A stretch of 42,530 bases of DNA, from the IMG/VR virus record IMGVR_UViG_3300048865_000013, positions 1 to 42,530 of that record. The stretch is one strand, 5' to 3'. The position numbers and the translations under genes are program-made. Position 1 is the first letter of the stretch. Every line of letters starts with the position of its first letter. This document shows, piece by piece, positions 2,182-35,434 of this stretch. The notes under the pieces were generated by a model, which saw only the letters and a program-made list of their open reading frames with translations, was not told the origin of the DNA and did not search any database. The DNA is from a virus. Its lineage: Duplodnaviria > Caudoviricetes.

Positions 2182-2406
2182 ATGGCAGGAAATATCCACG
2201 TCGTGCCGTCGGACGGCAACGGTTGGGCGATTGAGGTAGAGGGAGCCGGCCGCTCCAACGTCCACTACCCATCCCAGGAAGAAGCGATCAAGGCCGCCAC
2301 CGAGAAGGCAAAGCAGGCCAAGGTTGAGCTATTCATCCATGGCCGCGATGGCCAGATCCGCGAGCGGAACAGCTTCGGCCACGATCCCCGCGACATCAAG
2401 GGGTAG
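2182..2406 (+). CDS. DUF2188 family protein
   Basis: IHVVP..GWAI...SQEEAI..A...A....ELFIHGRDGQIRERNSFGHDP signature; AGGAGG RBS. Confidence 0.88.
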   Translation: MAGNIHVVPSDGNGWAIEVEGAGRSNVHYPSQEEAIKAATEKAKQAKVELFIHGRDGQIRERNSFGHDPRDIKG

Positions 2407-2409
2407 ATC

Positions 2410-3036
2410 ATGGCCACGGCTCGGCCGCCCGCCCCGACGCTGGCCGAGCTCTCCCCCATGTTGCTCGAGGAGCGGCGCGCCGTCCCTCAGGGCGACTGGC
2501 ACTTCGAGATCAAGTACGACGGGTACCGGTTGCTGGCCGGCAGCAGCCCCGCTCGCCTGAAGTCGCGCAACGGGCATGACGCGACAGCGTGGTATCCGGA
2601 GGTCGCCGCGGCGGTCGGCAACTTGAAAGCCCGCTGCATCTTCGACGGGGAGGTCTGCGTCCTGGACGAGCACGGCCGGAGCGACTTCGAGCTGCTGCAT
2701 CGCCGGTCGGCGCGCCGCGGCAAACCGCCCGGCTCCCACCATGTCGCCTACTGCGTCTTTGACCTGCTGGTCAACGGCGGCCGGGACATGCGCGAGCAGC
2801 CGATCGAGAAGCGCAAGGCAGCGCTCCGGAAGATCCTGGGCTGCTGCCCCGATACCCTGCTTTTCGTCGACTGGGTGGAGGATGGCGACTGGCTATACCA
2901 GCAGGCGCTGGCACTCAGGCTGGAAGGCATTGTCGCCAAACGCGCCGGCAGCGCGTATGCGGCCGGAAAGCGGTCCAGCGACTGGATCAAGGTGAAGCGT
3001 CCGGGCGCCGTGCCGGCGGAGCGGTTCAAGCGGTAG
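2410..3036 (+). CDS. Minimal ATP-dependent DNA ligase (LigD/LigC-type nucleotidyltransferase domain only)
   Basis: Motifs I EIKYDGYR, III IFDGEV, IIIa VFDLL, IV LEGIVAK and V WIKVK present; the protein ends before any OB domain. Confidence 0.88.
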   Translation: MATARPPAPTLAELSPMLLEERRAVPQGDWHFEIKYDGYRLLAGSSPARLKSRNGHDATAWYPEVAAAVGNLKARCIFDGEVCVLDEHGRSDFELLHRRSARRGKPPGSHHVAYCVFDLLVNGGRDMREQPIEKRKAALRKILGCCPDTLLFVDWVEDGDWLYQQALALRLEGIVAKRAGSAYAAGKRSSDWIKVKRPGAVPAERFKR

Positions 3037-4074: not shown

Positions 4075-4506
4075 ATGATCACACCGATGATGCTGCGAGC
4101 AATCGCCTTGTCAACTGTTCTCGCAGTAGGCTCAGCGCTGAGCGGATGCGCGACCCCGCCAGCCACCGTGACACAGAACGCCGATTACGGGCAGTTTCCC
4201 ACCGACTATAAGCTCTCGGTCCGGAGCTTCTTGCAGACCTACTTGAAAGACCCAGAGTCAGCACGGGTCCGTTACCTGACGGAACCCATCAAGGCATATA
4301 ACCGGGCTGCACCAATCGCTGGCGGCAACCCATTGCAATTCGGGTACCTCGTCGTCGTCGGAGTGAACGCAAAGAACAGCTATGGCGGCTATACCGGAGA
4401 GCAGCCAATGCGCTTGCTCATCAAGGATGACATCGTAAGAGCGGTCATTGAGCCGAATCCGTATTTCTCCGAGCCGTGGTATCAGCCTCAATACCCGTCG
4501 CCCTGA
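4075..4506 (+). CDS. Prophage lipoprotein moron (LKDPESA...NAKNSYGGYTG family)
   Basis: Signal peptide with lipobox LSG-C; GGAG RBS; convergent with the lysis cassette. Confidence 0.8.
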   Translation: MITPMMLRAIALSTVLAVGSALSGCATPPATVTQNADYGQFPTDYKLSVRSFLQTYLKDPESARVRYLTEPIKAYNRAAPIAGGNPLQFGYLVVVGVNAKNSYGGYTGEQPMRLLIKDDIVRAVIEPNPYFSEPWYQPQYPSP

Positions 4507-5039
4507 ACGGTCAAGGCTTCGTAGGTCCGCTCACAGGCTTGGCCTGCGATGCGGGCAGCGTCAGCGTATTGAGCCAGGATTCCCGCTCGGCGGTCACACC
4601 GGCCGAGCACGTCGGCAAGCATTCCGATGGGATCGCCGGCTGCCGAGCCTCCGCTGGTAGCGGTGGAATCGCCGCCGGCTCGGCTGGCGGCGACCAAGTC
4701 GGCAACTCGCTGGCGCAACCTGCCAGCAATAGCATCAGCAGCGCGAGCATCGGCGCGCGCCTGGTCTGCTTCCTTCTTCGCAGCATTCGCAATCTCCGCT
4801 TGTTCGAATAGGCGGCGCTGTTCTTCCCGGCGCGCATCGCCTACTGCCCCGACCTTCGCCGCCTCCTGGGCGAGCCGTTCCTCGGCATAGCTGCGGCGCA
4901 GGCTATCGATCTCGCCGTCTTTGCGCCAGCCCTGAACGGACCAGCCGGTGGCGAACGCCGCGCCGGCCAGCACCACGACAGCGACCGCGCGCCACGGCAC
5001 GGCCGCAGCGGCTGCTCGAATGGCAGTCGTCTGAATCAT
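4488..5039 (-). CDS. Rz-like inner-membrane spanin (DUF2514-like)
   Basis: N-terminal TM, Ala-rich coiled coil, C-terminal AGQACE; contains an embedded lipoprotein gene. Confidence 0.85.
   Translation of the reverse strand: MIQTTAIRAAAAAVPWRAVAVVVLAGAAFATGWSVQGWRKDGEIDSLRRSYAEERLAQEAAKVGAVGDARREEQRRLFEQAEIANAAKKEADQARADARAADAIAGRLRQRVADLVAASRAGGDSTATSGGSAAGDPIGMLADVLGRCDRRAGILAQYADAARIAGQACERTYEALTVQGDGY
4511..4786 (-). CDS. Rz1-like outer-membrane spanin embedded in Rz
   Basis: Lipobox LLAG-C, Pro-rich with Cys pair, alternate frame inside Rz; start could instead be 4750. Confidence 0.82.
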   Translation of the reverse strand: MLRRRKQTRRAPMLALLMLLLAGCASELPTWSPPAEPAAIPPLPAEARQPAIPSECLPTCSAGVTAERESWLNTLTLPASQAKPVSGPTKP

Positions 5040-5230
5040 CGTTCCCTCGTCGCGCATTCGGCGTACATACGCGCCGCCGTGTCGATGTGGGCCAGCAGCG
5101 CCTGGCGCCCTGCTCCTCGCTCGAGCTTGGGCAACGGCGGGCATCCCTCGCGCGCCGCCGGCGCCGGTGCATCTGGCCCGGCTGGAGCCGCGCAGCCCAC
5201 CAGCAGCAGACAGAACACAAACGCCTTCAT
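5036..5230 (-). CDS. Small Pro-rich lipoprotein (second o-spanin-like)
   Basis: MKAFVFCLLLVG-C lipobox, CPPLP, C-terminal YAEC; ATGA-coupled on both sides. Confidence 0.72.
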   Translation of the reverse strand: MKAFVFCLLLVGCAAPAGPDAPAPAAREGCPPLPKLERGAGRQALLAHIDTAARMYAECATRER

Positions 5231-5658
5231 CGGCCGCCCTCCTTCAGCTTCCTGTTCGCAGCCTCGATCGCGCCATTGACCCGCGATCGCTCCGCCTCCG
5301 ACAACGGCGCTGGCGCGCTTCGAGCGGCCTGCTTGACCGTCCTCGCGGCCTCGGCCGACGTCTCCGCCGCCTGGGCCGCGGCGCCAGCCGCCGCCGAAGC
5401 GGTCTGTGCGATGTCTCCGAGCTGGGGCGCCAGCGCCTGGAGCGTCCACGAGAACGTGCCCTGCAGCCGCTCGATCTCCGCAGCGTGGTCTGCGCGCATC
5501 TGCACGAAGACATCCCGCGCTTGCCACTGCGCAAGCGCGTAGCCGCCGACCGCGCCGCCCATGGCGATCACCAGCACCAGCGTGATCGCTTCCAGTACGT
5601 GGGCCACGCGCCGGAACGTGTCCCGGTGCCTGGCCAGCCAATCACGAACCCTTTTCAT
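5227..5658 (-). CDS. Single-TM coiled-coil lysis-region protein (second i-spanin-like)
   Basis: Basic N-terminus, one TM, Ala-rich helical domain. Confidence 0.7.
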   Translation of the reverse strand: MKRVRDWLARHRDTFRRVAHVLEAITLVLVIAMGGAVGGYALAQWQARDVFVQMRADHAAEIERLQGTFSWTLQALAPQLGDIAQTASAAAGAAAQAAETSAEAARTVKQAARSAPAPLSEAERSRVNGAIEAANRKLKEGGR

Positions 5659-5983
5659 CCAGCTTCTCCTTGAGGTGTCGCACCTCGGCCGTCAGCTCGG
5701 CAATCGTTCGCTTCAGGTCGCCGATCTCGCGCAGCAGGTCGTTGCGCTCCTTGTAGGCGGTATCCGCTCGCTGCTCGGCCAGATCGGCCCGGGCGTTCGC
5801 CTTGTCGAGCAGGTCCTGCAGCCGCTCGATGATGTCGGTCTCTGCCTGGCTCCGCGCCCCCTCGACGCGATCGGTTCGCCATACCTTTCGGACCAGCCAG
5901 ATTGCCCCGCCAATCGCGGCCAGAATCGCCCCGAATGCCCCGCTCGCGCCCCCCGGCACGTCCACCATCGCGTTCAGATCCAT
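5642..5983 (-). CDS. Putative holin/antiholin-like protein (N-terminal TM plus coiled coil)
   Basis: C-terminal 113 aa of ORF 5642..6523; AAGGA RBS; lies directly after the endolysin. Confidence 0.65.
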   Translation of the reverse strand: MDLNAMVDVPGGASGAFGAILAAIGGAIWLVRKVWRTDRVEGARSQAETDIIERLQDLLDKANARADLAEQRADTAYKERNDLLREIGDLKRTIAELTAEVRHLKEKLDEKGS

Positions 5984-6000
5984 CGTCCTTTCCAGTGGGC

Positions 6001-6507
6001 TTACGCCTCGATGTCGGTGCCGCCGTGCGCCAGGTAGACGTCGCGCAGCGCTTCCAGTCGGTGCTCGCGCTGGCCGTAGCCGGCGCCCGGCAGGCTGGCC
6101 CATTCCTGCCGGCACTTGCGCACCGCCTCGGCGAATCGGCCGGCCATCAGATCCGGCAGCGCGCCGCGGCGCTTCACCAGGTAGGCGGCGACGATGTCCT
6201 GCGATCGCGGGCTGAAGTCCGTCACGCCGCAGGCGCGGCTCGCCCAATCCCACGTGTCCGTTCTGATCTTCCCTGGCACGGCCGCCATGATCTGGTACCG
6301 CCCAGCGGCATCGCTCAGACCCCAGCGGGTGAGCACAACGATGCGCGGGTGCTCGTCGTATCCGGCGAACAGCTTGCCGCCGACGTTCACGTTGTAGCCA
6401 TCGTCGCTGTTTGCGACTGTCGTGGTCCCTTCGCTGAATCCCAGCATGTCGAGGAAGGCGGCCATGTTCCGGCCGCCGGGCAGTTTGTCGGGATGGGTAA
6501 ATGGCAT
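6001..6507 (-). CDS. Endolysin, lambda R-type lytic transglycosylase (GH104)
   Basis: AFLDML..SEGT, AAGRYQ, DFSP.SQD and EWASLPGAGYGQ motifs. Confidence 0.93.
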   Translation of the reverse strand: MPFTHPDKLPGGRNMAAFLDMLGFSEGTTTVANSDDGYNVNVGGKLFAGYDEHPRIVVLTRWGLSDAAGRYQIMAAVPGKIRTDTWDWASRACGVTDFSPRSQDIVAAYLVKRRGALPDLMAGRFAEAVRKCRQEWASLPGAGYGQREHRLEALRDVYLAHGGTDIEA

Positions 6508-6523
6508 TGCTGGCTCCGGACAA

Positions 6524-6551
6524 TAAAAAATGCCCGCGCTATGGCGGGCAT
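6524..6551 (-). terminator. Intrinsic terminator upstream of the endolysin
   Basis: ATGCCCGC/GCGGGCAT stem followed by a T-tract on the minus strand. Confidence 0.65.
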
Positions 6552-6591
6552 ATGCTTCGCGGCGCGCTCTGCGCCGTGCGACTCGTGTCGC

Positions 6592-6620
6592 TTGTAAACC
6601 GTTGCACCCTTCCCTACGAT
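6592..6620 (+). promoter_or_regulatory. sigma70-like promoter of the TonB-CTD moron (TTGTAA-17-TACGAT)
   Basis: Good -35/-10 match with 17-bp spacer. Confidence 0.6.
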
Positions 6621-6786
6621 CCATCAGACGCCTCTGATGTCGATCAGCAGAAGCGTCTGCACCCCACGGCTGGGGGGTGCTCATCGACTGTTACAGTTCG
6701 GCCTTCCTCAGTAACATGCAGGCCCAATGAGGCCAACCCATGCCCTAGGCTTGGCTGATTTTCCCAACGGAATGAGGGGACACACG

Positions 6787-7134
6787 ATGACAACGAAGTG
6801 CCTGACGACTGCCGTGGCTGTCGGCATCCTCTTCTCTACAACGGCTGTGCATGCATTCCCCTCAACGCGATGCGTCATGACGCCGCCTGCTTACCCAGAC
6901 TCTGCCGTACGGGCCCGGGCAGAAGGACATGCGCAAGTCACGATGAAGGTCACTGCGGCCGGTGAGGTCGCCTGGATTCGCGTATCGGAGCCCAGTGGCA
7001 ACGCGGTACTAGATGAGGCTGCGGCTGCGGCAGCGTGGAAAGCCAACTGTTCCAGCGGTATCGAAGAACTGGTGGTATGGCCCGTGGAGTTTAAGATCAT
7101 CAAAAGGGCAAAGGGACCCGAGCTATTCCCGTGA
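6787..7134 (+). CDS. Secreted stand-alone TonB C-terminal domain protein
   Basis: Cleavable signal peptide (..TAVHA|F), then PAYP..A.....EG...V...V...G.V..I.V..PSGN.VLDEAA..A...W, ending PVEF; opposite strand to flanking late genes. Confidence 0.85.
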   Translation: MTTKCLTTAVAVGILFSTTAVHAFPSTRCVMTPPAYPDSAVRARAEGHAQVTMKVTAAGEVAWIRVSEPSGNAVLDEAAAAAAWKANCSSGIEELVVWPVEFKIIKRAKGPELFP

Positions 7135-7148
7135 TCGCGCCAACCGCG

Positions 7149-7820
7149 TTATAAACCGGAGAAATCGAGCACCAGATATGCACCGTAGTCTGATCCACCG
7201 TCTACACCGTTGTATTGCATGCCGGTGTATGGCCCGATCACGTCGATGTTTCCGTATGTCGTTCTAACGATTCCACCAGATGCGCTCGCGAACATGGAGT
7301 CGTACACGTAAGTCCATTGATCCGTCGTCCCCTGGCCGAGCGGAGCTTCTCTCGCGACCCATATGCGCCGTCCCTGCGCAACAGCCACACGCCTACCATA
7401 GTTGTTGTTGAGGCCACTGATGTTAGGTCCCTGAATGAAATCGAGGATCCGCATATACGGCATCAGCGCGTCAAACACCAGCGCTCCGCTGGCGTCAAAA
7501 ACCTGCAACCCGAATTGACTGATAGCTGGGGGAGAGACCCTGAACACAACGATGGTGATGGCGCCCGCCGATCCGAGTTTGAAGAACCGGTAGCGCACAG
7601 TATTCCCACTGACCGATACCACGGAATGACATGCGTAGTCCGAGTCGACGTAAGCAATGAATGCATCGACCCCATATGCGAGGTCCACGTCGGTGTAGTA
7701 CGCATTCCGCGTCGGCGTGGTGCAATTGATTGTTCGCGTCTCGTAGAGAAGGTAATTTTTGTAGTCCTGATCAATCTGAACAAAGTTGTTCTGATTGATC
7801 GCCTGGAAGCCGGCCGTCAT
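7149..7820 (-). CDS. Tail-tip accessory / receptor-binding-associated protein downstream of J
   Basis: MTAGFQAIN...QIDQDY, FGLQVFDASGALVFD repeat motif typical of post-J genes. Confidence 0.7.
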   Translation of the reverse strand: MTAGFQAINQNNFVQIDQDYKNYLLYETRTINCTTPTRNAYYTDVDLAYGVDAFIAYVDSDYACHSVVSVSGNTVRYRFFKLGSAGAITIVVFRVSPPAISQFGLQVFDASGALVFDALMPYMRILDFIQGPNISGLNNNYGRRVAVAQGRRIWVAREAPLGQGTTDQWTYVYDSMFASASGGIVRTTYGNIDVIGPYTGMQYNGVDGGSDYGAYLVLDFSGL

Positions 7821-8113
7821 CAGTAGACCCCATAGCTTATGTAGATCGGCATCCTCATGTTCACTGGAAGCCCGCCAAAGCTCCACGACAGCGTGGTCCC
7901 CGTGATTGAGACAGACGGCTCTACCCGACCAGTGTTCGAGCCGCTGCCATTCGGCGTGACTAGGAACCACGGCGTTCCAAGGGACAATGCGGGAGCCACG
8001 ATGGCGCCGTCATTGGAGCCGGTGAATTGAGTCCCGATATAGCGCGTGATGCGATCCGTGATGCTGAGTCGCAGTGCCCCGGACTCGTTGAATACTTCAA
8101 CCCCGGCCCGCAT
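7820..8113 (-). CDS. Small tail-tip accessory protein
   Basis: GVEVFNESG motif, YGVY C-terminus; coupled to J. Confidence 0.7.
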   Translation of the reverse strand: MRAGVEVFNESGALRLSITDRITRYIGTQFTGSNDGAIVAPALSLGTPWFLVTPNGSGSNTGRVEPSVSITGTTLSWSFGGLPVNMRMPIYISYGVY

Positions 8114-11100
8114 CACCAAATCCCCATTCGCACTCGAAGGGTCCCGTTACCGTCAAACACTCGGATCTGTGAATCCGTAATGGTCAAATATCCCGATCCC
8201 GCGCTCGGTCCAGTCATGGTGAGCGTTCCGCTCTTGTCGAGCCTCCACCTCGGCTGACCGTTCGCCCCAAGCGCATTCGATTGGATCACCTCGCCGATCA
8301 TCGCGTTGGTTATCCGGCCATCGCCAATGAAGGCCTGATTGATGAACGTCTGCCCGTTCTGGATGACGAACGGCGTGGAAATCTGACCGTTGATGAGGTT
8401 GAGCAGCGCGAACCGGTCGGCCTGGAACAGCACCTGCGACTGCACGACCCCGCTCTCGTTATCGATCCCGATCGCCATGCCGGCGCCGTAGTACTTCCCG
8501 TCCTGCGTGACGCCGACCTTGATGCTGTACGACGCGGAGATCTTCCCGTCCAGCGCCACCATGGCCTGCGCCGTGGTCTGCACCAATGCCGTATTGCCGT
8601 CGAGCGAGGCTTGAAGCGTGGTCTGCTGTGCGGCCAGCGCCATGTCGGCCTCCTGCATCAGCGACTGCACCGACACGATGCCGGCGAAGACGCCAGAATC
8701 GCCCGCGTAGTCGTCGATGCTCCCGGCGAACGGCGGATCGATGCGGCCGATCTTCGATACGAGGTCCTGCGCGAGCTGCGACTCGCCGATCTGTCCGGCA
8801 AGGTAGTCAAGGATCTCCGTGGCGTCGGAGCTTGCCTGCCCTACCACCCCGGTCTGTGTCCCCGGATACCAGGCTCCGATGTTCCCGGACTTGTCGACAA
8901 GGCGCGCCCAGAAATAGAGCGTCGCGCCGGCCGCCAGCCCCATGATGGTGTGGCTGTTCTGCGGGAAGGCGAAGTCCGCCATCTTGATCGCGTCGTCGCG
9001 GCTGTTCGTCTGGCTGTACCAGATCTCCGTCCGCTCCACGTCAAGAGGCCCCTCTGGGAATCCCCAATCCAGCCGAATCGCGAAGATCAGACCAGTGGCC
9101 ACCAGCGACGTCACCACCGGCGGCGGGCTGGTCTTGCCTTGCAGCACGGTCTCCGGCGAGTAGGCCGGGATCGACGGCACGTCGAGCGCGTTGATCGCCC
9201 GCACGCGCGCCACATAGGTGCCGGCGTAGACGCCACGCACCTCGAGGCTCTGCGAGCCCGTGCGGCCTGCCCTTACCCACTCGCTGTTGTCGCGGCGCCA
9301 TTCCACCTCGTACGCCACCGCCTTGTCTGCCGGCGTCCAGCTGATCACCATCGTCGTGACGGCAATACCCTGGTCGATGGTCGAATAGGTCGACAGCGCG
9401 ACGTTGGTGGCCGGCGGCTGTACCGACGGCGGGATGACCGTGATCGGCCGCGCCTCGATGCGGGTGCCGCTGTCAATCGCCGCGAACTTCTGCGGCTCGT
9501 ACTGCAGCGCCGTTATCTCGGCGTTGATGCCGCCGCTCTCCCGGATGGTCAGCACGCGGACGAGCTGCGTCTTGAGCTCGGCGCTCTCGACCGCCCACAC
9601 CGATTGCGGGCGCACCGGCTCACTCCACGGACCGGTCACGGTAACCGTGTTGCCGTTGACCGCGCCGATAGTGCGCGACTGGGCGGTGCCAGATGGCAGC
9701 GTGACGATCAGCGTGTCGCCCACGGCTACTTGGTCCGCCTTGTCCAGCGTCACGGTATTGCCGCTGGCCGAGCTGACCCGGCCACCGATGCGTCGGCCAG
9801 CGCGCGACGGATCGGCGATCCTGACGATGCTGCCCGGTTGCACCAGCGCCTGATCCATGCCGACCGTAAAGGTGACCGTCTCGGTCTCATAGCGGGACGT
9901 CAACAGGATCCACCTGCCCGCGCGCTGCGCCTGGCCCTGACTCGTGCAGCCGAAGGCCGTGATCTCGACCTCGCGGACGCCGTAGCGGGCGATACCCTCC
10001 TCGTCCGGTACGTATTCGACCTTGGCGCGACCGAAGTCCTTCGGGTCGTTCCAGCTGACCAGCGCAACGGTCTTGCGGGCCTTGCGGGCCGTGCCGGCGT
10101 ATCGAAACTTGCCGTCGGCAGTGTTGGCCGCGACGAAGGTGTGCACCGGGTCCTTGGGCATGTCGGCCACGGCAACGACGTTGCCGGCCGCCCAGTAGGC
10201 CATGCCGCGGAAGATCGACGCGATGTCCTGCAGTACCTTGTACGCTTCGGCGCGGGTCTGCAGATACAGGTTGCACGTGAACCTCGGCTCCTTGCCGCCC
10301 TTGCCGTCGTCCACCAGCTCGTCGCAGTACTGGCCGATCTGGTAGAGGCCCCACTTGTCGATCATCGCCGCATTGATGCGGTCGCCGAGGCCATACCGAG
10401 GGTGCAGCACTAGGTCGTAGAAGACCCACGCCGGATTGTCCGTCCATGCCACCTTGAACGTGCCGTCCCAGGTGCCGACGTAGGTGCGACTCTCTGGGTC
10501 GTAGTTGCTCGGTACCCGGATGACGCGGCCGTACGTGTCGTAGGCCCGGGTCGGTACCGAGTTGAACTGACGGGCATCGATCTGGATGCCCACGATGGCG
10601 CTGTTCGGATACCGCAGCTTGCCGTCGATGATCTCGGTGATCGATTCGACTATCGTGGTGTCCGCGATCGTGCCGCTGTTCGCGTTCGGCGTGATCCGGC
10701 GCACGCGCACTGTCCACCCCGACGTGGCGGGCGGCAGGTCAATCCGGTGGCTACGCTCGTACTTGTTGGTCGTCTTGCCGTCAAAGGCCGACGACAGGAC
10801 CTGCTGATAGCTGCCCCCGTTGATCGACAGATCGATGGCGTACTCGATCCGGTAGCCGGTGATGTCGCCGTTAGACGTGTTCGTCTTCGACAATGCCGGC
10901 ACGGACAGGCGGATGCGCACCGCCGACAACTGCGTGTTCGAGATCGCGCGCGTCCACGGCGTGCTGGAGGTCAGCGTGACACCTACGCCCGTCTCGCTCT
11001 CGGCGGCCGGAAATCCCGGGATGTAGTCCTGATCCTGCGTCCCGAGCCGGTAGTCCACCGACACATTCTGGAAGTTGAACGACCCATCCGGGTTCATGAG

Positions 11101-11283
11101 CGGCGTCTCGTTCAGATAGACGCTCTGCAGGCCGTTTACCAATCCCCGAATCTCGCCTTCGGAAATGAGGTCGAGCACCCGCGCGTAGGCGATCGAGTTC
11201 AGGCTGTCCGGGCTTTCGACGGGCGCACGACCACCCCCGCCGCCCTTCCCACCGCCGCCGTAGCCGATGATGTCTGCGCGCAT
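8113..11283 (-). CDS. Tail tip / host specificity protein J (central fibre)
   Basis: GGGKGGG N-terminus, ISEGEI.GL, WTDNPAW, EPRFTCN, FN3-like region, DUF1983-like C-terminus ending RVRMGIW. Confidence 0.95.
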   Translation of the reverse strand: MRADIIGYGGGGKGGGGGRAPVESPDSLNSIAYARVLDLISEGEIRGLVNGLQSVYLNETPLMNPDGSFNFQNVSVDYRLGTQDQDYIPGFPAAESETGVGVTLTSSTPWTRAISNTQLSAVRIRLSVPALSKTNTSNGDITGYRIEYAIDLSINGGSYQQVLSSAFDGKTTNKYERSHRIDLPPATSGWTVRVRRITPNANSGTIADTTIVESITEIIDGKLRYPNSAIVGIQIDARQFNSVPTRAYDTYGRVIRVPSNYDPESRTYVGTWDGTFKVAWTDNPAWVFYDLVLHPRYGLGDRINAAMIDKWGLYQIGQYCDELVDDGKGGKEPRFTCNLYLQTRAEAYKVLQDIASIFRGMAYWAAGNVVAVADMPKDPVHTFVAANTADGKFRYAGTARKARKTVALVSWNDPKDFGRAKVEYVPDEEGIARYGVREVEITAFGCTSQGQAQRAGRWILLTSRYETETVTFTVGMDQALVQPGSIVRIADPSRAGRRIGGRVSSASGNTVTLDKADQVAVGDTLIVTLPSGTAQSRTIGAVNGNTVTVTGPWSEPVRPQSVWAVESAELKTQLVRVLTIRESGGINAEITALQYEPQKFAAIDSGTRIEARPITVIPPSVQPPATNVALSTYSTIDQGIAVTTMVISWTPADKAVAYEVEWRRDNSEWVRAGRTGSQSLEVRGVYAGTYVARVRAINALDVPSIPAYSPETVLQGKTSPPPVVTSLVATGLIFAIRLDWGFPEGPLDVERTEIWYSQTNSRDDAIKMADFAFPQNSHTIMGLAAGATLYFWARLVDKSGNIGAWYPGTQTGVVGQASSDATEILDYLAGQIGESQLAQDLVSKIGRIDPPFAGSIDDYAGDSGVFAGIVSVQSLMQEADMALAAQQTTLQASLDGNTALVQTTAQAMVALDGKISASYSIKVGVTQDGKYYGAGMAIGIDNESGVVQSQVLFQADRFALLNLINGQISTPFVIQNGQTFINQAFIGDGRITNAMIGEVIQSNALGANGQPRWRLDKSGTLTMTGPSAGSGYLTITDSQIRVFDGNGTLRVRMGIW

Positions 11284-11296
11284 TGCTGTACCAATG

Positions 11297-11321
11297 AAAA
11301 AGCCCCGCACGCGGCGGGGCT
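11297..11321 (-). terminator. Intrinsic terminator between tail genes I and J
   Basis: AGCCCCGC/GCGGGGCT stem plus TTTT on the minus strand. Confidence 0.6.
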
Positions 11322-11952: not shown

Positions 11953-12656
11953 CCTCGATACCTCAAGACACATCGGGTGATCTCTTGCCAGTAGCCGCCG
12001 TAGACGTCGCGGGATGACAACCGACCATGCAGGTGGTGGAGCATGGTGCCGTCACCCAGGTAGACGCCGGCGTGGTTTGGCACCGGCGAGCGCAGTTGCA
12101 TCAGGATGACGTCGCCGGCCTGCTCCGGCTGGTCCTGTATCTCCAGCGGAACGAATCCAGCCTCGGCGTAGTGCTGCATGTACAGGTCCTCGCCGTGCTG
12201 CCACCAGTCGTCCCGGCGCGGGAAGTCGGGCAGCGTGATGCCACGCTCGCGCTGATACCAGTCGCGCACGAGCGTGTAGCAGTCCAGCACCCCGTGCGCA
12301 AACTCACGGCCCACCAGCGGCGCCTGATAGCCGCTCGGCGTGATCGTGCGCAGGTCATCCGCCGGCCAGGATACGATATGCCATGGAAGGCCAGACGCCT
12401 CGCACGCGACGCGGTCAGCTTCGCTGGGCGTCGCTGGAGCGTCCGGATGGCTGTGCACGACCGCGATGACGTCGCCCATGTCCTCCGCGGCGGCGTAGTC
12501 CTCAGCCGGCAGCACGAAGTGCTCCGAGCCTTCGGCGACGTTCCGGCACGGCACATACCGCTCCCGCCCCTTCACCACCACGATCAAGCCGCAGGCTTCG
12601 CGCGGGTAGTCCGCTTGCGCGTGAGCACGCAAGGCGGCCAGCGTTGATGCTTCCAT
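11949..12656 (-). CDS. Tail assembly protein K (JAB + NlpC/P60)
   Basis: YPREACG, HSHP...PSEAD, DCYTLVRD, NHAGVY. Confidence 0.93.
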   Translation of the reverse strand: MEASTLAALRAHAQADYPREACGLIVVVKGRERYVPCRNVAEGSEHFVLPAEDYAAAEDMGDVIAVVHSHPDAPATPSEADRVACEASGLPWHIVSWPADDLRTITPSGYQAPLVGREFAHGVLDCYTLVRDWYQRERGITLPDFPRRDDWWQHGEDLYMQHYAEAGFVPLEIQDQPEQAGDVILMQLRSPVPNHAGVYLGDGTMLHHLHGRLSSRDVYGGYWQEITRCVLRYRG

Positions 12657-12657
12657 C

Positions 12658-13359
12658 TCAGCTCCGGATCAGATCGGCGGCAGGGAACGAACCGATGGGC
12701 AACGGATTGTTGTCGCCGAAGCGCTTCTTGCACGAGGTCAGGCGACCACCGCACCGATCGAGCGCCGGATCAGCGACCGGGTTGTCGTTCTGGTCGAAAT
12801 ACGCCGTGCCGGTGTAGCCACAATACGGTCCTCGGTAGCCGCCAATGGACAGCCAGCCGCAGACGTTCGCGACGATCTGACGCCGCGGCACCTGCACACC
12901 GTCGAAGTCGAGCGCGCTGGCCAGCTCCCACGTTACCGACACGTTGTCCTCGTCGGTCTTCTGCTCGAGGTACCAGACTTCCGGAGGAAGTTCTTCGGTC
13001 GGATCGGCAGTGGGATTGCCTCCCGGAAAGTTCGCCGCGTCCAGGTATTTGCCCAAGGTCACGTGCCGCGTCAGTTTGGCGCCCACCATGTCCTGCAGGT
13101 ACAGGCACATCGCCGTGATGGCGCCCGTCACGTTGCCGACGGAGAGGGTTGGCGTTGGCTGCTGCCCCTCGCCCGTCCGCGCGAAGCCGTCGCCCTGAAT
13201 CGGCCAGGGCGAGTACTCGTTGCCCTGCCACCAGATCGGGCCGACCTGCGTATGGCCATGAAAGCGCAGTAGGTCGCCGCCGATTCCCGTAGCGTCGAGC
13301 TCGAACAACTCCACCCGTTCGCCAAGCTCCAGCGTCTGGATGTCGTAGTTGATCTTCAC
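12658..13359 (-). CDS. Minor tail protein L
   Basis: GTG start; VELFELD, C.W...YRG..CGY, DRC...L..CKKRF Fe-S cysteines. Confidence 0.92.
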   Translation of the reverse strand: MKINYDIQTLELGERVELFELDATGIGGDLLRFHGHTQVGPIWWQGNEYSPWPIQGDGFARTGEGQQPTPTLSVGNVTGAITAMCLYLQDMVGAKLTRHVTLGKYLDAANFPGGNPTADPTEELPPEVWYLEQKTDEDNVSVTWELASALDFDGVQVPRRQIVANVCGWLSIGGYRGPYCGYTGTAYFDQNDNPVADPALDRCGGRLTSCKKRFGDNNPLPIGSFPAADLIRS

Positions 13360-13814
13360 GAGGGCAACTCCAAAGGCGGCAGGAGCGCGATGGCTTCCTC
13401 TACTGTCGGCATCGGCTTGGCCCCGGTCTGGATCTCCGCGAGGTAGGCATAGCCGGCCTGCCACACGAGGGATCGCCACTCGCGAAACGCGATTCCCTCG
13501 GCTTGAAACTTGGCCACCGCAGGCTCGTCGGCGTATGTGACGGCGCTGTTGATGCCGTCGTACCCAAGTTCTTGGGCCTTCCGGTCCATGTGCGACTGAA
13601 TTGCGGCACGAATCTCGGCCACCGTCGCAGGAACCGGTGCCGGTGCCGCTGGCGCAGTGAACGCACCATTCGCGTAGGAATAGCCGATGGCGACTGCTTG
13701 GTCGTCCGGGATGGGGATCAGTGTGCTGGCGATGTCCAGCGGCGCACCGCCATCCCACAGGACGACGTTTACCACTCGCCCATCCGCGACTTCAGCATAA
13801 CGATTGGTCATCAC
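13356..13814 (-). CDS. Putative tail fibre assembly/chaperone protein
   Basis: Follows the fibre gene; YA.V.DG.VVNV N-terminus and AQELGYD...EG.AF.EWRS.VW C-terminal domain. Confidence 0.65.
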   Translation of the reverse strand: MMTNRYAEVADGRVVNVVLWDGGAPLDIASTLIPIPDDQAVAIGYSYANGAFTAPAAPAPVPATVAEIRAAIQSHMDRKAQELGYDGINSAVTYADEPAVAKFQAEGIAFREWRSLVWQAGYAYLAEIQTGAKPMPTVEEAIALLPPLELPS

Positions 13815-33374: not shown

Positions 33375-33514
33375 GCCTCTTTCCCCGTTGCCTTCTAGAC
33401 TCGCCTCACAACAACAAACGAGCCGCCCCATGAATTCCCGCGCCCAGACCTGCAGACGCCTCTGCAGCAAAACAGCAGGCACATCTGCATGCGACCGATG
33501 ACACACTCGGGCGC

Positions 33515-33850
33515 ATGCAGACCTACAGTGATCGACTGCGCTGGGCTATGGCCCAAGCAAACCCGCCGATGTCTCAAGCCGCCCTTGCCTCCCGCATCGG
33601 CGTGCGCCACCAGTCCATCAACTACCTCTGCAACCCGAAGCGGAATCCAAAGTCCAGCCGCCACACCTATGCGATCGCTACGGTTCTCGGCGTGTCGCCG
33701 GAGTGGTTGGCCACCGGCATCGGATCGCCACGCCGCACCGCTAGGACAAGCGCAGATCCATTCCTCTTGCTGCTCGACTGCTTGCTTTGTCTGCAGACGA
33801 TCAAGGACCGACTCGAGCAAGCGGCCGAGCTCATGCGCCGGGATCGCTAA
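33515..33850 (+). CDS. Extra XRE-family HTH regulator between cro and cII
   Basis: DRL..AM......SQA.LA..IGV....I, IA..LGVSPEWLATG.G. Confidence 0.85.
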   Translation: MQTYSDRLRWAMAQANPPMSQAALASRIGVRHQSINYLCNPKRNPKSSRHTYAIATVLGVSPEWLATGIGSPRRTARTSADPFLLLLDCLLCLQTIKDRLEQAAELMRRDR

Positions 33851-34080
33851 ACTCGGTCCGCGTCCAACTCAGGCCAAACGGTCCGCCAATCTCTCGGGCG
33901 CAGATCCTTTCGCGTTACCGCCCCGCCCGTCGCGCGCTCAACTGCCGCGCACCGTTCAGCCGGCACCGGGCGCAGTCCCATCCGCCACTGGTAGACCATC
34001 GCCGGACTCACGCCGACGACGCGCGCGATCTGGGCCGCTTTCTTGGCGCCATCGCTGGCGAGGTATTCGTTGAGGTTCAT
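33847..34080 (-). CDS. cro: Cro/YdaS-like repressor
   Basis: IA..VGVSP.MV.QW..G.RPVP.ERC..VE.ATGG.VTR.DLRP. Confidence 0.9.
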   Translation of the reverse strand: MNLNEYLASDGAKKAAQIARVVGVSPAMVYQWRMGLRPVPAERCAAVERATGGAVTRKDLRPRDWRTVWPELDADRV

Positions 34081-34150: not shown

Positions 34151-34636
34151 ATGAGAATCTGGTCACAAGAAGAAGAGGCGCGGCATTTGCGGGATCGGTT
34201 TGCGAACGTCAACCGAGCGGAGTTCGCGCGCCAGCACGGAATCAAAGGGGGTCAGGCCAGCATCTACCAGCACATCAATGGCATCCGCCCGATCAGCCTA
34301 GACGCCGCGAAGGCGTACGCGCGAGGGTTCGGGGTGCCGCTGGAAGAAATTAGTCCCCGCCTCGCCAAGGAGGTATCGGAGGCGTCCGCCTACGCCGGGC
34401 CAGCTGCAACAGCAAACCCAGCACCAGAACGAGAGACGTGGCCGTTCTCCGCACCCTTCACCGACTACCAAGCCCTTTCGCCGAAGGACAAGTCCGTGCT
34501 CGACCAGACTGTTTCGAGGTTCGTGGCCGGCTGCTTGTCTCAGCGCGAGCGCCCTCAGGCAGAACAGACTTTCGAGATGTCGCACCACAAAAGCGACACC
34601 GAACAGCAGACCGTCCGTCGACGGCGATCGAAGTAG
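34151..34636 (+). CDS. cI: CI-like repressor lacking an S24 autoprotease domain
   Basis: HTH (AEFA...GI.GGQ.SI.Q..NG.RPIS, EISPRLA); divergent from cro; no GDSM/KR peptidase motifs. Confidence 0.8.
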   Translation: MRIWSQEEEARHLRDRFANVNRAEFARQHGIKGGQASIYQHINGIRPISLDAAKAYARGFGVPLEEISPRLAKEVSEASAYAGPAATANPAPERETWPFSAPFTDYQALSPKDKSVLDQTVSRFVAGCLSQRERPQAEQTFEMSHHKSDTEQQTVRRRRSK

Positions 34637-34655: not shown

Positions 34656-35315
34656 ATGGGTTGGTTGACAGATCATTTTCGCAAACCGGGGCAAGACGAC
34701 CACGGACAGCCGTTGGCCCCATATCGGAAGCAGGCAGTTGCCGCCCGGCAGATCGATGAGCTCATCGGGATCGTGAAGGGCGTAACGGCCGACGGCATGG
34801 TTCATCAGGGCGAAGTGGAATACATACTGCAGTGGCTTGAAGCCAACCGCGGTGCGATGCAAGAGTGGCCGGCAAAGGCAATCTATCCCCGCCTGTCCGC
34901 CGCATTGGCGGATGGGAGGATCGACGAGGAGGAAGAGCGGGAAATTCTCGACCTTCTTTTGTCCACGGTGGGCGGCAACACCGCACCCCAAGCCGGCCAG
35001 CCCAGTGACAGCACCGCCCTCCCGCTTTGCAATCCCGCGCCATCGATCGTCTTTGAGGGCCGGACGTTCTGTTTCACTGGCAAGTTCTCGAGCGGGAGCC
35101 GGTCCTGGTGTCAGGAAGCCGTCGTAGCGCGCGGCGGCGCGCCGGCGGACACCATCACGAAGAAGCTGCACTTCCTCGTGATCGGAGAGATCGGTAGTCG
35201 CGATTGGCTCCATTCCACTCATGGGACGAAGATCCTCAAAGCCGTGGAATACCGAGATAACGGGGTTCCGATCTCAATCGTGAGCGAACGACACTGGTTC
35301 GACCACCTTCGATAA
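34656..35315 (+). CDS. TerB-like N-terminus + BRCT domain protein (immunity-region moron)
   Basis: ADG.V...E...I..WL, then F.GRTFCFTG.F...R......V..RGG, LVIG, G.K..KA, I.IVSE..W. Confidence 0.85.
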   Translation: MGWLTDHFRKPGQDDHGQPLAPYRKQAVAARQIDELIGIVKGVTADGMVHQGEVEYILQWLEANRGAMQEWPAKAIYPRLSAALADGRIDEEEEREILDLLLSTVGGNTAPQAGQPSDSTALPLCNPAPSIVFEGRTFCFTGKFSSGSRSWCQEAVVARGGAPADTITKKLHFLVIGEIGSRDWLHSTHGTKILKAVEYRDNGVPISIVSERHWFDHLR

Positions 35316-35364: not shown

Positions 35365-35434
35365 ATCAGACGCCTGTGCGGAAACAGCAGGCGCTTCTGC
35401 AGAAAGAATCACATTACTCTGCCGTTCTCTCCTG

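Follow-up and report, generated by a model that had tools for sequence, protein, structure and literature searches.

The window, by which we mean the whole stretch of DNA analyzed here (42,530 nucleotides), comprises an entire 42.5-kb virus record and encodes an integrase, a repressor region, an HK97-type head, the tail proteins L, K, I and J, and a lysis cassette; it is a lambda-like temperate siphophage. Cupriavidus is the likely host of this soil prophage, and the one sequencing run that contains the entire stretch is a soil metagenome, which may be its source. The C-terminus of J was 79% identical to that of a prophage of Cupriavidus sp. HPC(L), the best of 25 genome loci, and positions 4907-6686 of the window shared 83% DNA identity with a Cupriavidus sp. 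HPC(L) prophage. A small gene encoding a TonB C-terminal domain lies between the tail-tip genes and the lysis cassette, in the following setting:

6001-6507, minus strand: endolysin, the first gene of the lysis cassette (phrog_90, E = 2.2e-39)
6530-6551, minus strand: hairpin resembling a terminator, located between the promoter of the moron and the beginning of the endolysin gene (one found by scan, shuffle mean 0.6)
6592-6620, plus strand: likely sigma-70-type promoter, TTGTAA-17 nt-TACGAT (conserved in prophage loci L004 and L030)
6625-6680, plus strand: leader with two predicted hairpins (fold prediction)
6774-6779, plus strand: ribosome-binding site GAGGGG, 7 nt 5' of the ATG (sequence)
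6787-7134, plus strand: gene for a stand-alone, exported TonB C-terminal-domain protein of 115 aa (profile matches, structural model, dN/dS)
6787-6855, plus strand: predicted Sec/SPI signal peptide, residues 1-23, with probable cleavage after V-H-A (inspection, hydropathy, similar N-terminus in homologs)
6871-7095, plus strand: TonB C-terminal domain, residues 29-103, with a predicted disulfide between Cys29 and Cys88 (cysteine invariance, model strands)
7149-7820, minus strand: second gene after J, 223 aa, a putative receptor-binding protein (RBP), convergent on the TonB-domain gene (phrog_4062, phrog_425)
7820-8119, minus strand: first gene after J, 99 aa (phrog_2427, E = 1e-24)
8113-11310, minus strand: tail tip protein J (Pfam and PHROG profiles)

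The TonB-domain gene therefore runs counter to both neighbors, the putative RBP gene (7149-7820) and the endolysin gene (6001-6507), as an initial annotation of this DNA had described. In three other DNA sequencing runs the flanks were covered, positions 6814-7215 were uncovered, and no contig bridged the gap.

The 115-aa protein is confirmed to consist of a signal peptide, itself predicted, and a TonB C-terminal domain, without linker or anchor. The Pfam search that had been proposed as a check matched TonB_C (PF03544) at residues 33-91 with 44.2 bits against a cut-off of 24.6 (E = 2.8e-11), and TIGR01352 matched with 47.2 bits against a cut-off of 27.1 (E = 2.1e-12). An AlphaFold2 model built from an 8-row alignment had a pLDDT of 86-94 per 10-residue block over residues 31-100 and displayed the TonB_C architecture, a three-stranded sheet (47-55, 61-68 and 94-102) with two helices (38-42 and 73-84) and the last strand free. 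Its best Foldseek match was a Neisseria TonB (9dc4_T; E = 8.7e-7, rmsd 1.0 Å), and the top matches were all TonB C-terminal domains, from Neisseria, Pseudomonas, E. coli and Salmonella, with TolA far lower (E of 0.18 or more). Cys29 and Cys88 were invariant in all 14 alignment rows, three host TonB domains among them, and the model had strands at 29-30 and 87-88; a disulfide between these residues is predicted from the TonB fold.

The absence of a membrane anchor and of a Pro-rich linker, both asserted in the initial annotation, held up. By eye and by hydropathy, the N-terminus has the features of a signal peptide (K4, an h-region at about 6-16, and V-H-A at 21-23); its best 19-residue hydropathy was 1.59, compared with 2.08-2.10 for two host TonB anchors, and the corresponding values ranged from 1.33 to 1.76 in ten of ten family members, so that the inner-membrane anchor of TonB energy transducers is missing. 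The domain cysteine is residue 29, compared with residues 135-136 in host TonB, leaving no room for a linker. Since the domain starts about five residues past the predicted cleavage site, even an uncleaved form would probably be unable to span the periplasm. There are no exbB/exbD or transporter genes around the gene; the adjoining genes are those of the tail and of lysis. Public gene calls start at Met53 and yield a 63-aa product without signal or YP motif, which has hidden the nature of the gene. An upstream start at 6727, giving 135 aa, was rejected because homologs begin at the 6787 ATG, which has the ribosome-binding site.

Proteins of this kind are few. A search of 1.84 billion representatives returned two near relatives, at 58% and 49%, along with a small number of more distant proteins of equal build, and a profile search added three further members, for a family of about 11 proteins, all of which keep C29 and C88; two of them, P0004 and P0088, are on contigs of 41 and 40 kb. 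Pattern scans for more members found none in viral contigs or metagenome contigs, a tblastn search of 50,697 phage records gave no homolog of the 115-aa protein, and a structure search of BFVD gave no match at E ≤ 0.001. A host TonB domain searched against phage records matched only those of Acinetobacter phage MD-2021a and one weak unannotated record. Three plasmid matches, when examined, were full-length TonBs.

The cysteine pair was present in all 27 Cupriavidus TonB sequences examined among the top matches and in two Burkholderia TonBs, and was absent from E. coli TonB. This agreement with full-length Cupriavidus TonB shows descent from a Burkholderiaceae-type TonB, of which the 115-aa protein is thus a cut-down version. 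It has in common with the full-length Cupriavidus and Burkholderia proteins the C-terminal domain and the C-x6-YP...C cysteine pair, whereas it lacks their ExbB-binding anchor, their Pro-rich linker of ~110 residues and their exbBD operon, has a loop before the last strand that is ~6 residues shorter, and has gained a C-terminal tail. Identity with host TonB domains is only 25-27%. The TonB core residues (YP, G47, G59, LD and F102) are retained, and the three closest family members share W63, W84, W98 and a C-terminal KGPxLF that are absent from host TonB. The gene is under purifying selection, with a dN/dS of 0.338/1.258 = 0.27 over 113 codons against its closest phage homolog (locus L001) and an intact reading frame in all homologs examined. 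In the full-length Cupriavidus and Burkholderia TonBs themselves (L113 1111-1767 and further host tonB loci), the conserved cysteine pair would act as a staple on the C-terminal domain.

A counterpart is already annotated in E. coli prophages. PERCE_65 of phage Perceval, equivalent to LF82_160, is a 108-aa lipoprotein with a lipobox (PF03544, E = 7e-13), and proteins of this type occurred in 15 phage records, including that of phage 21, where an identical protein is labeled 'TonB C-terminal domain protein'. Table 1 of PMC9928086 lists it as a 'TonB fragment' moron, transcribed 8-fold above background in the lysogen; the available passages of that paper state no function. Like the window protein, the Perceval/phage 21 protein combines an export signal with a bare TonB_C domain and is a prophage moron near lysis genes, but it sits at the bor-cos end rather than in the slot after J, and it is a lipoprotein, whereas the window protein has no lipobox. 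In bit scores, the E. coli prophage protein reached 55 against E. coli TonB but no more than 13 against the TonBs of Burkholderiaceae; for the window protein, Burkholderiaceae TonBs gave 21-29 and E. coli TonB gave 12. A tree of 93 columns, which had only two non-Burkholderiaceae rows and in which the E. coli protein sat on a long branch, separated the two groups at 100/99, each beside the TonB of its own host lineage. An AU test, run after the tree had been seen, rejected a single clade of the window group and the E. coli protein (p = 0.0013), and a second, convergent capture thus looks likely; independent capture from each host lineage is the simplest reading of these sequences.

The gene had also been credited with its own promoter. 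A promoter scan gave no hits above threshold at TTGTAA-17-TACGAT, which has 8 of 12 matches by eye, yet both hexamers and the 17-nt spacing are unchanged in L004 and L030, two close Cupriavidus prophages, while the spacer sequence differs. Window positions 6561-6686 are 81-83% identical to the DNA upstream of a lipoprotein gene in these two loci, where promoter and leader are the same but the gene behind them encodes an unrelated lipoprotein of 92 aa. Conserved hexamers and spacing around a changed spacer suggest that the promoter is likely real and that the slot swaps its cargo. With a promoter of its own (judged from this conservation), an insertion between conserved phage genes and a patchy occurrence in relatives, the gene deserves the name of moron given to it.

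The fold of the leader downstream of this promoter had a z score of -1.39 in the window, which is not significant (16 of 200 shuffles folded equally well), and of -3.40 in L004, and Rfam gave no credible leader match. A strict leader pattern matched in none of 78 Cupriavidus genomes, a search that also missed the known L004 copy, and a promoter-leader DNA search of the 78 returned nothing beyond the L004 genome and a single weak match. A hairpin-like motif starting CAGACGCCT(C/G)TG occurs on the plus strand of the window at 6625-6659, 33453-33490 and 35367-35399, in each case 5' of a stand-alone plus-strand gene (the TonB-domain gene, a helix-turn-helix (HTH) gene and a 79-aa ORF, respectively); at one mismatch there were 4 matches against 0.66 expected, and the three copies may represent a shared leader or regulatory site.

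The position of the gene corresponds to that of cor, as had been proposed. In phage N15 the order is J-gp22-gp23-cor, in the window it is J, the 99-aa gene, the 223-aa gene and the TonB-domain gene, and in HK022 cor likewise lies shortly after J. The 223-aa gene matched phrog_425 (E = 1.3e-6), whose label, 'membrane associated protein', is also that of N15 gp23; its direct match to N15 gp23 was weak, and a single-sequence model had a pLDDT of 39. Passages in PMC8594841 assign receptor specificity to loci after J, suggest cognate exclusion genes alongside, downstream of gpJ, and report LptD, TolC or LamB among the targets of related RBP loci; by analogy, we regard the 223-aa protein as a putative RBP.

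We surveyed synteny at this locus, as had been suggested, across 105 J-related loci, 47 of which had a detectable homolog of the 223-aa gene; two of these were incomplete, leaving 45 readable loci that are partly redundant, several being the same prophage twice. A convergent gene for an 89-93-aa lipoprotein-like protein occupied the slot in 18 of the 45, four had doubtful ORFs and 23 had none. Together with the promoter and leader common to the window, L004 and L030, these loci bear out the predicted exchange of cargo, here between the TonB-domain gene and small lipoprotein genes. The slot lipoproteins, found in Cupriavidus and Ralstonia prophages, carry two further cysteines, and their genes abut the stop codon of the putative RBP gene (for example, L004 9969-10247 and L008 9964-10233, both on the minus strand, plus 16 more loci). 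They matched no PHROG or Pfam family and are unannotated candidates for Cor-like exclusion proteins.

The window protein resembles Cor (phi80, N15, HK022 and T1) and Llp (T5) in being a small exported protein encoded beside receptor-binding genes, and its likely target is alike, since Cor and Llp are presumed to work from the periplasm on a TonB-dependent transporter. It differs from them in several respects. Neither their sequence nor their fold was found in it (no cor PHROG and no PDB match); they are lipoproteins, and Llp requires acylation according to passages of bioRxiv 10.64898/2026.03.26.714494, whereas the window protein has no lipobox-like cysteine in its signal region and is predicted to be soluble; N15 cor is co-oriented with its neighbors, whereas the TonB-domain gene is counter-oriented; and, unlike Cor and Llp, the TonB-domain protein is a mimic of a host protein. 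It is thus Cor-like by position and likely target, and outside the Cor family by sequence and fold.

The gene may be linked to one allele of the putative RBP. The same 223-aa allele was found in one other locus only (L001, identical to L055), at 70% identity, with all others at 34% or less, and the L001 phage also carries a TonB-domain gene, behind an unrelated lysis cassette. GC3 was 0.64 and 0.66 for the TonB-domain and 223-aa genes, compared with 0.86 for J and endolysin. The association, seen in two phages, may reflect functional pairing or shared descent. A more distant member of the family is found where a prophage of C. pampae (LMG 32289; L007) ends, with another RBP allele. In that prophage a block of three genes, which includes one for an HTH protein and is possibly a module of the toxin-antitoxin type, stands between the lysis genes and the TonB-domain gene (12193-13545).

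Among related virus records the domain is rare: PF03544 was found in one of the 50 records searched (of 81 loci), and in none of 21 at ≥90% completeness. We also examined seven short-frame matches from 78 Cupriavidus genomes, in which 58 candidates were scored per genome, and four more from 248 family genomes. Eight of these 11 matches were stand-alone exported domains, six lipoprotein-like and two signal-peptide-like; the other three (L144, L150 and L152) were set aside because they appear to be cut or broken full-length TonBs. One of the eight belongs to a prophage that has genes for a baseplate and an integrase, one is in an Rhs/plasmid-like context, one is behind a TPS gene, and five have no Pfam mobile marker. 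Counting the window, L001 and L007, four of the 11 stand-alone copies with a seen context are in phages, and the architecture is therefore not confined to phages, which weakens a pure exclusion reading. Two of these lipoproteins have neighborhoods hinting at a role in toxin competition: L139 9811-10185 is beside Rhs genes, and L142 9586-10089 is behind a TPS-domain gene with small downstream ORFs.

We propose that the protein is an unpowered decoy that occupies TonB boxes and thereby excludes TonB-dependent phages, a reading to which we assign about even chances. The signal peptide would export the mature TonB tip to the periplasm, where the domain would pair with the TonB boxes of outer-membrane transporters. 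A TonB without linker and anchor cannot transmit force from ExbBD. The anchor-less domain could accordingly bind yet not pull, the receptors would stay unenergised, and the occupied TonB-dependent gates would be closed to rival phages. Passages of PMC11658791 describe pairing between the last TonB strand and the TonB box of transporters and group B colicins, and passages of PMC9841981, citing Howard 2001, report that overexpressed periplasmic TonB inhibits import by TonB-dependent transporters in E. coli; binding without pulling, taken with this inhibition, favors an exclusion decoy. The engineered fragments of Howard et al. (2001) were likewise anchor-less domains in the periplasm, but they were overexpressed artificial constructs with the sequence of the host's own TonB. 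A TonB tip with an export signal, encoded where related phages carry receptor-blocking genes, likely jams TonB-dependent gates.

Potential targets are at hand, as 18 genes for plug-domain proteins are present in Cupriavidus HPC(L), several of them with typical TonB boxes. Complex predictions that combined the mature domain with the plug and TonB box of a Cupriavidus transporter scored 0.23 and 0.20, against a mark of 0.32, which speaks neither for nor against binding. The residues specific to the clade (W63, W84, W98 and KGPxLF), being absent from host TonB, suggest that the decoy may be tuned to a single receptor, as Cor is to FhuA, sparing iron uptake. The same interpretation in the initial annotation stands in part: the anatomy, the promoter and the cor-equivalent slot favor it, but the architecture is not exclusive to phages and its E. 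coli counterpart was already annotated. A functional study of a phage-encoded TonB domain was not found in the literature searched, a scope that left out most subscription papers, and no such domain is described in the available passages of PMC11436027, bioRxiv 10.64898/2026.10.24.761521, PMC13673623 and bioRxiv 10.1101/2022.09.22.509047. Several points count against a decoy. The phage's receptor may not need TonB; the protein has diverged far from the host TonB domains; the known blockers are co-located lipoproteins, dependent on acylation in the case of Llp, whereas this protein is predicted to be soluble; a broad block of TonB would cost the host its iron and B12 uptake; and the gene is rare among related virus records.

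The distribution of stand-alone copies lends weight to a TonB-box binder whose benefit is something other than phage exclusion. As one of many Burkholderiaceae stand-alone tips in variable regions, it would damp the entry of bacteriocins, of polymorphic toxins or of antibiotics that mimic siderophores, or tune iron uptake. Of the 11 copies whose context was seen, seven are not in phages, and two of these seven adjoin toxin-like genes (Rhs or TPS); TonB-dependent colicins themselves carry TonB boxes (passages of PMC11658791). However, the window copy occupies a position taken in relatives by small lipoproteins of Cor-like type and accompanies a single allele of the putative RBP, and we consider this account unlikely, though worth keeping in mind. 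It is improbable that the TonB fold now serves a different partner in the periplasm, for instance the phage's own proteins of the tail tip or of DNA entry, or a ligand of the TolA type (TolB box, filamentous-phage g3p or group A bacteriocins), giving exclusion without TonB boxes: the low identity with host TonB, the clade-specific Trp residues and C-terminal motif, and the fold shared with TolA domain III would fit, but TolA was a far poorer Foldseek match than TonB and the TonB core is retained. We give still less credence to a helper that stabilises or recruits transporters, or to a late-lytic role in stopping progeny from adsorbing to debris. A terminator scan found no terminator-like site 3' of the gene on the plus strand, which would suit such a role, whereas counter-orientation and an own promoter suit expression in the lysogen, and the established TonB mechanism allows no force from ExbBD without linker and anchor. 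A membrane-anchored mini-TonB or a decaying, functionless remnant is very improbable, for although H22 recalls the His of TonB anchors and the family has very few members, the hydrophobic segment is short, weak and close to the domain, and the frame is intact and under constraint.

The gene is genuine, is under selection and occupies a favorable position for exclusion; by descent it stands outside the E. coli TonB-fragment family. Cor and Llp are dedicated lipoproteins with their own fold. For the decoy reading we advance a broader proposition, tentatively and at somewhat less than even confidence: temperate phages have at least twice captured the TonB tip of their own host lineage as a superinfection-exclusion factor, constituting an undescribed class of exclusion by energy-transducer mimicry, which is here soluble, disulfide-locked, receptor-tuned, interchangeable with Cor-like lipoproteins and paired with an RBP allele. 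If the protein is a natural TonB-tip decoy, exclusion would operate by host mimicry at a step common to phage entry, bacteriocin import and iron and B12 uptake, and the protein would be a natural inhibitor of the contact between TonB and the TonB box, which is pursued as an antibacterial target (passages of PMC9841981). An origin independent of the E. coli prophage protein, together with the cor slot, provides comparative support that the E. coli cases lacked, and the slot itself draws attention to a family of Cor-like lipoproteins, as yet unannotated, in prophages of Cupriavidus and Ralstonia.

Other genes of the window merit mention. A second repressor-like HTH gene (33515-33850, plus strand; phrog_4, E = 2e-11) is convergent on a cro-like gene (33847-34080, minus strand) and is additional to a cI-like gene at 34151-34636. 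Right behind the repressor gene, and followed by a terminator-like hairpin, is a gene for a 219-aa BRCT-like protein (34656-35315, plus strand; phrog_3989) that is possibly expressed in the lysogen. At the end of the record, three plus-strand genes of low GC content (269-1688; 48-54%) had no Pfam, NCBIfam or PHROG matches and form a possible defence or host island. A DUF2188 gene and a gene for a stand-alone ATP-dependent DNA ligase domain (2182-3036, plus strand) are also at the prophage end, and a 143-aa lipoprotein-like gene (4075-4506, plus strand; phrog_2320), convergent on the spanin genes, constitutes a second envelope moron.
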